A stretch of DNA of 9,024 nt from a virus: the UHGV virus genome UHGV-0305646. One strand, written 5' to 3'. Below the pieces are notes generated by a model. The model was not told where the DNA came from. It saw only the letters and a program-made list of their open reading frames with translations, and searched no databases. Shown here in pieces: positions 218-1,762 of the stretch. The position numbers were made by a program, and so were the translations under genes. Each line of letters begins with the position of its first letter. Positions within the stretch are counted from its first letter, which is position 1.

Positions 218-409
218 TTATTTTCCGCAAGCAGGGCAGACGTTTGCATCACCAAATTGCATTGTAGTGCTTTTATTCACACTAAAACTTTCGAATCCTT
301 CACGTAAGGATTTTTTTTCACCATTAAAAAGATATGTTGTAAATTCTTTTTTCTCCGCATCAGTCAATTGAAGCCAGAGAGCTTTGACTTGATCTACTTT
401 ATAACTCAT
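218..409 (-). CDS. Hypothetical 63-aa protein ending in CPACGK, translationally coupled to the upstream 2-TM gene
   Basis: Track ORF 218-451; I prefer the internal ATG at 407-409 because it is preceded by a strong SD (AAGGAG, 6-nt spacing) and starts just after the stop of the upstream gene (421-423). No family recognised. Confidence 0.45.
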   Translation of the reverse strand: MSYKVDQVKALWLQLTDAEKKEFTTYLFNGEKKSLREGFESFSVNKSTTMQFGDANVCPACGK

Positions 410-420
410 TTGTTTCTCCT

Positions 421-996
421 TTATTTCACGAGATTGCCACAATTTGTGCAACCTTTCCGCTTGTTAAATTTAGTCGGTATTTTATTGCAACGTACGCATT
501 CTTTATTTTTCTTTACCAGAATGTCGAACATAATCCGTTTCTTATCATTATTGCTAACATATTTTTCATCTTCCTTGGCATTGAAGTCATCTTTTGATTT
601 TATCACTGAAAACAAATGGTTAGCGGGTTGCTGGTTGCCTGTCTTTGATTTAAACATGCTCGACAGTTCGCCATACAAATCAGTTAGGAGTTTATTGAAA
701 GAGTATGATTCCAGATATCGAGATAAATTTTCATCAGTCTTCATGACCAGTGTGTATAAATTAGAAAGCAAGACTATCACTGATAATATCCCTGTGCCCC
801 AAACTAAAAAATCAAAATATTTGGAGCTGTGATCAACCGATGCGTATCCTCCAACTAGGACAGGGAGGGCAAATGATAGATATTGGTTTATTTTTAAAAG
901 TCGTTCGCTTTTTTTGATTTTAGTTTTTAAGTAGTCAGCTGTTCCCTCTGCGTAAAATTTCCTGAGGTCCATTTCTTCATTCGGTTGCATACTCAT
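421..996 (-). CDS. Hypothetical membrane protein: two predicted TM helices followed by a ~100-aa tail with a CxxC-x12-CxxC zinc-ribbon motif
   Basis: Track ORF 421-1002 (193 aa, GTG start); the ATG at 994-996 has an AAGG SD 5 nt upstream. Hydrophobic segments INQYLSFALPVLVGGYASV and FLVWGTGILSVIVLLSNLYTLV; C-terminal CVRCNKIPTKFNKRKGCTNCG. No family recognised. Confidence 0.55.
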   Translation of the reverse strand: MSMQPNEEMDLRKFYAEGTADYLKTKIKKSERLLKINQYLSFALPVLVGGYASVDHSSKYFDFLVWGTGILSVIVLLSNLYTLVMKTDENLSRYLESYSFNKLLTDLYGELSSMFKSKTGNQQPANHLFSVIKSKDDFNAKEDEKYVSNNDKKRIMFDILVKKNKECVRCNKIPTKFNKRKGCTNCGNLVK

Positions 997-1068
997 CTTC
1001 ACCTTTCACAATATCAAACTAGCGCGGGCTGAAATTATAAAAAACCTGTAAATTCAAGTGATTGACAT

Positions 1069-1491
1069 TCACCAATAATATGAATTCCTTCTGTGCCACC
1101 AATAAAGCAGACCGTATCCGACGATAAGAATCCCGAAGAACATCAGAGACATTCCCCAGCCAGTTCCATACCACGAAACCATATCATCGAAAACCAGCCC
1201 ACCCGTTTCACGAACTCCGGCAGCTTCCTTAAGAATTGGCTTGAATACCGGAATCAGAAGGGCGATCGCCAGTGGAGCACCCCAGCGAATAAGGCCAGTT
1301 TCCATTTTGATCCCGAAAAAGATCCCCGCACCGACAACAAGCAGCCAGACTATCAGGCCAGGCGCAGTTTCCAGTGCTGTTTGCCATTCAACATCGAAAG
1401 TTTTCATTAGCCAGGCAACAACTGCCAGACAGAAAGCAAATACGCCTACAACAACCAGTTCAACGCCGCTTGTTTCGTTATTTCTACTCAT
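1069..1491 (-). CDS. Hypothetical polytopic inner-membrane protein (about 4 TM helices, 141 aa)
   Basis: Track ORF 1069-1638 (189 aa) overlaps the 60-aa gene; the internal ATG at 1489-1491 (MSRNNETSGVELVVVGVFAFCLAVVAW...) has an AAAGGA SD upstream and removes the overlap. Four hydrophobic stretches of about 20 aa. The 1638 start remains possible. Confidence 0.5.
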   Translation of the reverse strand: MSRNNETSGVELVVVGVFAFCLAVVAWLMKTFDVEWQTALETAPGLIVWLLVVGAGIFFGIKMETGLIRWGAPLAIALLIPVFKPILKEAAGVRETGGLVFDDMVSWYGTGWGMSLMFFGILIVGYGLLYWWHRRNSYYW

Positions 1492-1534
1492 CCTTTTGAT
1501 CCTTTGTTGCTGTTCAAAATCCGCACAATAAAGA

Positions 1535-1561
1535 ACGTGCAGTGTAGGTAATACTGCACGT
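1535..1561 (-). terminator. Hairpin between the 60-aa gene and the 4-TM gene (possible partial terminator or operator)
   Basis: ACGTGCAGT (1535-1543) pairs with ACTGCACGT (1553-1561), 9-bp stem and 9-nt loop; on the minus strand it is followed by TCTTTATTG. It sits 19 nt downstream of the stop at 1580-1582. Confidence 0.25.
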
Positions 1562-1579
1562 TTGTACCATTCGTGGTAC

Positions 1580-1762
1580 TTAATCCTTTTGTTTGGCAGA
1601 CATGAGATCTTCTGCTGCATCTTTAGAGTAGTTATCAATCAGATAACCTAAAATCTCTGTCCATGTAATTGTTTTTCCTAGTTTTACACTGGCATTTATA
1701 GCCAGTCGTTCTAGTTTCATTTTTCTTTCTTCCGTCACGTTATAAGTCGTGCGCTTTGCCAT
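1580..1762 (-). CDS. Small (60-aa) putative DNA-binding regulator, divergent from the Rep gene (same position as a CTX-type RstR repressor)
   Basis: Complete ORF MAKRTTYNVTEERKMKLERLAINASVKLGKTITWTEILGYLIDNY...; small, basic N-terminus, helix-rich. Function is inferred from size, composition and position only. Confidence 0.4.
   Translation of the reverse strand: MAKRTTYNVTEERKMKLERLAINASVKLGKTITWTEILGYLIDNYSKDAAEDLMSAKQKD

Follow-up and report, generated by a model that had tools for sequence, protein, structure and literature searches.

An exchangeable two-gene cassette within the leftward gene set of a dif-integrated filamentous prophage

The leftward genes and the slot beside the attachment site

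UHGV virus genome UHGV-0305646 represents a filamentous prophage in which four small genes on the minus strand lie between the phage attachment site and the divergently oriented replication gene (rep). We analysed the stretch of 9,024 nucleotides that contains them (hereafter, the window), and their coordinates were taken from the NCBI annotation of a near-identical Escherichia coli record (99.2% identity over window positions 130-1900). Leftward from rep, the genes encode a 60-aa protein in the position of a regulator (1580-1762; phrog_2503, E = 3.6e-34), a 140-aa protein with four predicted transmembrane (TM) helices (1069-1491; phrog_4174, E = 1.5e-85), a 191-aa protein with two predicted TM helices and a zinc ribbon (421-996; TIGR04402/PF27874), and a 63-aa partner belonging to no named family (218-409). 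A preliminary description had read these four open reading frames (ORFs) as a single accessory module. All four do exist as genes on the same strand, with ATG starts and good ribosome-binding sites, and homologues were found for each of them; the earlier limits of the 191-aa gene (421-1002) correspond to an upstream GTG start. The 63-aa ORF is coupled to the preceding gene, as had been stated, since it starts 11 nt past the 191-aa stop codon and is preceded by an AAGGAG site. On sequence comparison, the region is a lysogeny-side leftward gene set that combines a conserved backbone layer with an exchangeable two-gene cassette.

The division into two layers was evident from related prophages. 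In blastn comparisons with three sister prophages, sequence was shared up to position 204 and again from position 1071 (97-98% identity), with nothing in common between these points. The exchangeable slot therefore occupies 205-1070 on the minus strand (866 bp here), with the attP hairpin on one side and the 140-aa gene on the other, and its edges coincide with the end of attP site B and with the stop codon of that gene. Among 5,426 complete genomes, which served as the comparison set, the backbone segment 1071-1900 was complete in 27 E. coli genomes, and the cassette (206-1070) was found in 1. Judging from span lengths and annotation, these 27 genomes hold about 11 different slot contents. 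Besides the present pair (191 aa and 63 aa), they comprise an ECs_2282 zinc-binding protein with a 159-aa protein, an STM4504/CBY_0614 protein of 309 aa, a PD-(D/E)XK nuclease with DUF6953, pairs of 155 and 123 aa, of 94 and 262 aa, and of 117 and 110 aa, single proteins of 363, 369, and 250 aa, and one uninspected variant. The 60-aa protein was identical (WP_001335098.1) in every E. coli sister prophage, and the 140-aa protein was always present. The idea of one four-gene module thus failed as regards conservation as a block: the 60-aa and 140-aa genes stay with the backbone, and 205-1070 is swapped. Its other part was borne out, because this position does carry variable accessory cargo that differs between related prophages, and Ff phages have no counterpart.

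Three of the alternative cargoes resemble proteins of known or candidate defence families. The STM4504 cargo consists of AbiJ_NTD4 and DUF7014 and matches the PADLOC candidate PDC-S32; the prototype of AbiJ-NTD4 is CBY_0614 itself (PMC3710099). The PD-(D/E)XK cargo matches Aga_Helical-REase (1e-34) and also PDC-S35, and the ECs_2282 cargo matches PDC-S64 weakly. These similarities suggest that the alternative cargoes serve conflict functions, some of them coming from abortive-infection (Abi) or defence-candidate families.

The two backbone proteins were less informative. The preliminary description had called the 60-aa protein regulator-like. Its location agrees with this, since it occupies the rstR position, and the label found no support from a DNA-binding family. 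A ribbon-helix-helix fold had been expected and was likewise unsupported by Pfam, NCBIfam, and PDB searches. Between its gene and rep lies a divergent regulatory region of 127 bp (1763-1889) with three exact TGAACTCA repeats, at 1810, 1834, and 1881. These repeats sit within a pair of 16-nt direct repeats (1803-1888) and are candidates for an operator or for origin iterons. Based on its position, on the literature (PMC4266046), and on the TGAACTCA cluster, the 60-aa protein is presumed to be the lysogeny regulator, and it probably acts on the TGAACTCA repeats of the divergent promoter region. The 140-aa protein contains four long hydrophobic helices according to both hydropathy and an AlphaFold2 (AF2) model of poor quality (pLDDT 66.7), which agrees with the four TM helices predicted earlier. 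It has 49 homologues without any Pfam domain, all named ones from Enterobacterales, and so far as these homologues indicate it is restricted to Enterobacterales prophages of the CUS-1/YpfPhi family.

In pairwise comparisons with diverged copies, the 191-aa gene gave ratios of nonsynonymous to synonymous substitution rates (dN/dS) of 0.01-0.05, the 63-aa gene gave 0.09-0.20, and the 140-aa gene gave 0.15. For the 60-aa gene, pN was 0.135 versus a pS of 0.835, and no dN/dS ratio could be given because synonymous sites were saturated. Such values indicate that both cargo genes are under purifying selection. How the cassette is transcribed is less clear-cut: the spacer upstream of it on the minus strand (997-1068) contains a perfect TATAAT and no well-spaced -35 box, and a consensus scan yielded no canonical promoter, either for the cassette or for the operon as a whole. 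Transcription of the cassette may start at a weak promoter within this spacer, or it may continue from further upstream.

The TIGR04402 protein and its small partner

None of the four proteins had been recognised in the preliminary description, and for the 191-aa protein this did not hold. It belongs to the named family TIGR04402, "mobilome CxxCx(11)CxxC protein" (143.1 bits against a cutoff of 70, E = 1e-41), with residues 7-188 aligned to positions 2-179 of the 180 in the model, and PF27874 was precomputed on all of its close homologues. A profile search of 1.84 billion representative proteins placed 262 clusters in the TIGR04402 family, nearly all of them about 190 aa long and matched end to end. 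The zinc ribbon motif, C167-x2-C170-x12-C183-x2-C186, has all four cysteines. Its two CxxC pairs are separated by 12 residues in the window protein; the spacer is 11 residues long in 47 of 62 family members and 12 residues long in 7 of them. The AF2 model (pLDDT 82.8) places helices at residues 5-52 and 59-84, forming an N-terminal hairpin, and the family-level hydropathy has two peaks near 2.0 (residues 32-59 and 55-88). Together with the four-cysteine motif, this model and profile agree with the two TM helices and zinc ribbon that had been proposed for the protein. Considering that eight K/R residues precede the first TM helix, that the loop between the helices is very short (residues 58-59, SK), and that a zinc ribbon needs a reducing compartment, we predict an N-in/C-in topology, with both termini in the cytoplasm.

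A relationship of the family with SLATT proteins was investigated by scanning 62 diverse TIGR04402 members singly. All of them matched TIGR04402, 13 also matched SLATT_1 (best E = 1.8e-6), 10 matched SLATT_4, 2 matched SLATT_5, and 1 matched SLATT_6. The window protein on its own remained below the cutoffs of the SLATT models (SLATT_1, E = 0.06 and 13 bits against a cutoff of 41; DUF4231, E = 0.09). In a Foldseek search of BFVD, proteins annotated as SLATT took ranks 1, 2, 3, 8, 20, 26, and 28, that is, 7 of the top 28, with weak scores (E = 0.02-0.35, TM-score 0.27-0.57). PDB searches with the 191-aa protein gave no match annotated as SLATT, and sequence and profile searches of PDB with the TIGR04402 family gave nothing meaningful. 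These matches point to TIGR04402 as a zinc-ribbon-tailed branch related to the SLATT superfamily of 2-TM effectors and a putative member of it.

The 63-aa protein combines an N-terminal "L(S/T)xxExxEF" helix with a C-terminal C-P-x-C-G-K followed directly by the stop codon, and this terminal CxxCGK is a putative zinc knuckle. Having no signal peptide, the protein must, by this prediction, be cytosolic. Homologues of it were found beside the big gene in Pectobacterium (87% identity), in Edwardsiella, in Klebsiella, and on a metagenomic contig (32% identity, with an invariant TMQFG...VC..CG). Other genomic contexts of the family were drawn from tblastn searches of plasmids and from look-ups of exact proteins, and these yielded TIGR04402 loci on plasmids of Rhodococcus (two), Streptomyces, Flavobacterium, and Plesiomonas and on E. 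coli IncF plasmids; a scan of genome contigs with the alignment of close homologues confirmed no loci. In all nine loci compared, an ORF of 59-71 aa directly follows the TIGR04402 gene, overlapping it or separated from it by a gap of at most 25 nt, and in all nine it has the "L(S/T)xxExxEF" helix and ends in C-x-x-C-G-K/R before the stop codon. These nine paired loci span Pseudomonadota, Actinomycetota, and Bacteroidota. A profile of the small protein collected 61 relatives, all of them "hypothetical" and none with a Pfam domain, and sequence and profile searches revealed no Pfam or PDB relationship for the family.

The small partner is unannotated at 5518-5733 and 4545-4757 of two Rhodococcus plasmid loci (L009 and L011) and at 4595-4807 of an E. 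coli IncF plasmid locus (L014). Members of this small family are easily missed by gene callers, partly through their overlap with the upstream gene. On the metagenomic contig L007 (6166-6547), a single TIGR04402 gene is followed by a tandem of two small-partner genes, whose products (63 aa and 59 aa) each terminate in CxxCG. From the loci compared, TIGR04402 and its small partner form a conserved, translationally coupled two-gene module that is present in three phyla and concentrated on mobile elements. A full-text literature search found no paper mentioning TIGR04402, PF27874, or "mobilome CxxCx". What is new here is the pair itself, which has no enzymatic partner and is absent from PADLOC and from the literature searched.

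The prophage, its attachment site, and the mobility of the pair

The window is one unit, with a period of 8,451 bp, of a tandem filamentous prophage integrated at dif. A repeat search of the window identified bases 1-123 as an exact copy of 8452-8574, so the supposed attL of the preliminary description is instead a junction between tandem prophage copies. The repeated segment takes in the end of a 77-aa cysteine-rich ORF and half of dif, and the window begins within the preceding copy. E. coli C10 was the sole E. coli genome of the comparison set that matched 130-1900 over its full length (99.2% identity). It carries two head-to-tail copies of the prophage, each encoding rep II/X, a DNA-binding protein, G7P-2, the major coat protein, the attachment protein, DUF5455, a Zot-like protein, and a secretin. 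This inovirus core gene set is supported by the C10 annotation and by Pfam calls on a copy from Klebsiella quasipneumoniae (CP152879; L022/L023), which has the same prophage in a triple tandem array. In one copy of that array the 191-aa gene is cut to 130 aa and the secretin is broken, indicating decay specific to the copy. The sister prophages of other E. coli strains adjoin hipBA, that is, the dif region.

The attachment region consists of three adjoining elements. Hybrid dif/attP site A (109-141, plus strand) is composed of GGTGCGCATAATGTA, which is identical to dif, followed by the phage-specific GGACTCG and the XerD-like arm TTATGTTGAAA. A GC-rich stem-loop follows at 143-174 (GGCCGCTGCG / CGCAGCGGCC; stems 143-152 and 165-174), which is the tip of a longer inverted repeat (129-152/165-188). 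The inverted dif-like site B (177-202, minus strand), which reads GGTTCGCACAATGACGTTATGCTAAA on the minus strand, pairs with site A in single-stranded DNA (ssDNA) and marks the left edge of the conserved attP; homology to the sister prophages stops at 204. On the attR side, an intact chromosomal dif (8560-8587, plus strand) matches GGTGCGCATAATGTATATTATGTTAAAT, the dif of E. coli, exactly. As plus-strand ssDNA, 107-204 folds into a bulged forked hairpin (dG -30.7, z -7.1). By this predicted fold, the hairpin that joins sites A and B is the phage attP with an architecture of the CTX type. Minus-strand RNA forms a strong stem followed by UUUUC (dG -41.9 kcal/mol, z -7.5), and the GC hairpin plausibly terminates the leftward operon. 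The hairpin noted earlier at the end of the minus-strand ORFs is real. Regarding its role, it is terminator-like on minus-strand RNA, but it is primarily part of attP. The stem-loop at 143-174 is nearly invariant across the E. coli, Pectobacterium, and IncF plasmid copies.

These features identify the prophage, by sequence and predicted structure, as a member of the CTX-type, dif-integrating CUS-1/YpfPhi family. YpfPhi and CUS-1 have been classed with the CTX phage on account of a folded ssDNA attP, irreversible integration, and the need for tandem arrays in phage production (PMC4246890). YpfPhi of Yersinia pestis and CUS-1 of E. coli K1 resemble the present element in their integration at dif, in genes divergent from rep, in a regulator at the rstR position, and in variable attL-side ORFs; the counterparts are the regulator YPO2273 with YPO2271/2272 in YpfPhi and orf1/orf1a in CUS-1. 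Since a review of YpfPhi describes the same regulator and two attL-adjacent ORFs that differ between YpfPhi and CUS-1 (PMC4266046), the layout is ordinary for the family. Variation of the attL-side ORFs is thus already known in principle, and what is added here is its extent and its base-exact boundaries. The TIGR04402 protein and its partner have been reported as cargo for neither phage, and the literature compared two variants, whereas about 11 contents were found here. The CTX phage of Vibrio cholerae shares the forked ssDNA attP, tandem arrays, a divergent regulator, and cargo beside the attachment site (PMC4246890). However, its ctxAB genes lie at the opposite end of the prophage, beside attR, whereas the cargo here is regulator-side, leftward, and not a secreted toxin. 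Filamentous or tailless prophages of Vibrio are also small and dif-integrated, with a defined variable locus that often holds toxin-antitoxin or defence genes together with unannotated ones (Steensen et al. 2024, PMC11630473). The present elements differ from them in belonging to Enterobacterales and to another phage lineage and in having a slot that is mapped to the base and abuts attP; TIGR04402 cargo is not mentioned in that report. In the phage database, no close relative of the prophage was found beyond a pIV fragment of IKe and PEar phages, and no TIGR04402 homologue was found.

Three further features of the prophage were observed outside the leftward region. Two ORFs without an assigned function lie between the secretin gene and attR, one of 102 aa (7862-8170) and the 77-aa ORF (8288-8521), which has CDRC...CQHC cysteine pairs and stops 38 nt before the dif-like XerC arm; both are probably the attR-side ORFs of YpfPhi that have "no predicted function". 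Within the gene of the pIII-like attachment protein, a 15-nt tandem repeat (4406-4555) encodes a (GGGES)n/(GGS)n glycine-rich linker. Glycine-rich linkers are typical of inovirus pIII. The length of the linker probably varies among the sister prophages, whose attachment proteins differ.

The pair is also found away from complete prophages. With a distant query, TIGR04402 pairs were detected on at least 173 plasmids, 161 of the 173 being conjugative, and the IncF allele is present on 346 plasmids. In Pectobacterium, the pair and the attP inverted repeat (86% identity over window positions 84-990) adjoin a true chromosomal dif, with no phage genes. In Edwardsiella, where the 140-aa gene is missing, the pair is again next to dif and is preceded by a homologue (62 aa, 77% identity) of the 60-aa protein. 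On contig L007, the pair comes after a truncated secretin gene and a homologue of the 60-aa protein with 36% identity. Yersinia enterocolitica retains a remnant in which the 63-aa gene is joined by no more than 290 nt from the 3' end of the big gene, which fits the progressive deletion of this prophage reported for that species (PMC3161016). Other systems are found beside the pair on some plasmids. Its neighbours on the Plesiomonas plasmid (L013, 5106-7630) are a HigB toxin with a regulator and a pair of TIR-domain and caspase-family proteins, and those on a Rhodococcus plasmid (L009, 1230-10531) are a restriction endonuclease and a helicase with DUF1156 pair. None of the approximately 12 loci examined has an adjacent SMODS/CD-NTase, SLOG, or reverse transcriptase gene.

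A 72-nt copy of the hairpin and site B (window positions 132-203, about 93% identity) occurs in unannotated DNA of about 440 Enterobacterales plasmids, most of them conjugative. On pJIE186-2 (L008, 2501-2571), the single example examined, this copy directly abuts an STM4504/CBY_0614 (AbiJ_NTD4) gene. Considering that STM4504/CBY_0614 is also a cargo of some sister prophages, this suggests that cargo and the adjacent half-attP move together between dif elements and plasmids.

Possible functions of the pair

SLATT proteins are predicted pore-forming membrane effectors in CBASS, DRT10/UG17, DRT3, RADAR, and AbiA contexts and are switched on by a nucleotide or nucleic-acid signal from a partner enzyme (PMC9226505; bioRxiv 10.64898/2026.04.29.721553). 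The 191-aa protein is like them in its size of about 190 aa, its N-terminal 2-TM hairpin, its helical cytosolic part, and its mobile or defence contexts. As the preliminary description had suggested, the most reasonable guess is a membrane-targeting role in exclusion, abortive infection, or toxicity. We propose that the 191-aa and 63-aa proteins would form a complex in which the small protein acts as a regulatory or sensing subunit, controlling the oligomerisation or opening of a SLATT-type 2-TM effector. An infecting phage or another insult might be the trigger, and the activated effector would then permeabilise or depolarise the membrane, so that the infection is aborted or the invader excluded, to the benefit of both prophage and host. 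That the proteins form a complex, bind zinc, and damage the membrane is inferred from the data above, as are the trigger and the role of the pair. Taken as a whole, the proposal of an exchangeable cassette encoding a two-subunit SLATT-like effector with a small regulator, acting through membrane damage in abortive infection or exclusion, is a tentative one, to which we would give slightly less than an even chance.

Several observations speak against this proposal. In all SLATT systems characterised so far, an enzyme generates the signal (a CD-NTase, SLOG, reverse transcriptase, or deaminase), and no such enzyme is present here. Instead of a nearby nucleotide cyclase, SLOG, reverse transcriptase, or deaminase, the 191-aa protein has a C-terminal zinc ribbon and an obligate zinc-knuckle partner of about 63 aa. 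At E <= 1, none of the four window proteins had a match in PADLOC-DB v2. Most of the alternative cargoes lack a recognisable defence domain, so that the label of a defence hotspot rests on a minority of them. As for the backbone, Pfam, NCBIfam, and PDB searches found no DNA-binding fold or family for the 60-aa protein, and the 140-aa protein had no structural match in BFVD and no functional clue from its homologues or its model.

A bolder version of the proposal can be formulated, which we consider possible but doubtful. According to it, the pair would be a minimal SLATT-type system gated by a mini-protein, serving abortive infection or addiction and spread on IncF plasmids and dif elements, and the attP-adjacent slot would be a site dedicated to the exchange of such conflict cassettes, whose reshuffling would occur as heterologous dif tandems replicate across their junctions. 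Phage genomes newly made from CTX-type elements are copied across the point at which tandem elements join (PMC4246890), and such copying would reassort the segment from attL to the origin. Junction copying alone does not account for the other breakpoint, which falls at the 140-aa stop codon.

Among the alternatives, an addiction module survives best and is still unlikely. In this scenario, the 191-aa protein would be a toxin and the 63-aa protein its labile antitoxin, and together they would stabilise the phage episome, the prophage array, or a plasmid. A tightly coupled two-gene operon on mobile elements is what such a function would predict; the pair on IncF plasmids adjoins the sopAB partition genes, and YpfPhi is an unstable episome in most Y. 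pestis lineages (PMC4266046). Decay of the pair is moreover asymmetric, since the big gene was inactivated and the small one left intact in at least four independent cases, which include a frameshift (L015), an IS1 insertion (H97 and H98), the 130-aa Klebsiella copy, and the 5' deletion in Y. enterocolitica. Intact big and small genes are also equal in number on IncF plasmids (206 and 206). Nevertheless, on one of these approximately 206 plasmids, pMTY12357 (L028, NZ_CP134371.1, 1053-2936), the big gene is intact and the small gene is split by IS3, which means that the big protein need not kill the cell when the partner is missing, at least at its native level of expression. We downgraded the strict toxin-antitoxin reading on the basis of this allele. 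An N-terminal 2-TM fragment without a partner is found on 140 plasmids, and neither a DNA-binding nor an antitoxin fold could be recognised in the small protein. The nearest parallels are toxin-first type II toxin-antitoxin systems with zinc-binding antitoxins, such as MqsR/MqsA, which likewise have a coupled two-gene operon, the larger "effector" gene in first place, and cysteine pairs in the small partner. There is, however, no sequence relationship, the partner here has a single CxxC and no helix-turn-helix, and loss of the partner is tolerated on one natural plasmid.

Exclusion without killing is less probable again. The 140-aa protein, the 191-aa protein, or both would here protect against superinfection by related filamentous phages or against the entry of conjugative DNA by blocking the inner-membrane uptake machinery. 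The two are predicted inner-membrane proteins on the lysogeny side of a filamentous prophage, and the 140-aa gene is kept with the backbone beside the presumed repressor, the classical position for immunity and exclusion. The enrichment of TIGR04402 pairs on conjugative plasmids (161 of 173) would also suit this function. Neither protein has homology to known exclusion proteins, though, and the relationship with SLATT favours an effector over a blocker. Since Actinomycetota and Bacteroidota carry the pair as well, on elements unrelated to filamentous phages, a role specific to TolQRA or to a pilus cannot be general. For the 140-aa protein taken by itself, superinfection exclusion is a reasonable guess and nothing more.

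The original view that all four genes constitute one integrated, undescribed four-component system is now very improbable. The genes do share a strand and are closely spaced, and no strong terminator was seen between them, the single one being at the end. Against it, about 11 different cargoes were found distal to the two proximal genes; Pectobacterium, Edwardsiella, contig L007, and plasmids have the distal pair and lack the 140-aa gene; and an exact recombination boundary lies at the 140-aa stop codon. Scarcely any weight can be given to non-functional leftovers or chance frames in an AT-rich intergenic remnant, an idea to which the low GC content (0.32-0.37 over 300-900) and the absent annotation of most cargoes might lend themselves, because it is refuted by the selection analysis (dN/dS of 0.01-0.20 at high synonymous divergence) and is opposed by the good ribosome-binding sites and by the conservation of the pair across phyla.

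If the effector-regulator proposal is true, the pair would be smaller than any SLATT-type system known so far and the first of them to lack a signal-generating enzyme. It would then offer a simple handle on how SLATT effectors are switched, which has been named an open question (bioRxiv 10.64898/2026.04.29.721553). Related pairs are carried by hundreds of clinically relevant IncF plasmids, so that it would matter in practice if they altered phage sensitivity, the stability of the plasmid, or the physiology of the membrane in any way. The base-exact slot next to attP provides a defined place in which to search for accessory systems in the filamentous prophages of Enterobacterales, extending the reports from Vibrio (PMC11630473). 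These findings also return to the plague-associated YpfPhi, whose terminal "ORFs of unknown function" have long been noted without being explained.

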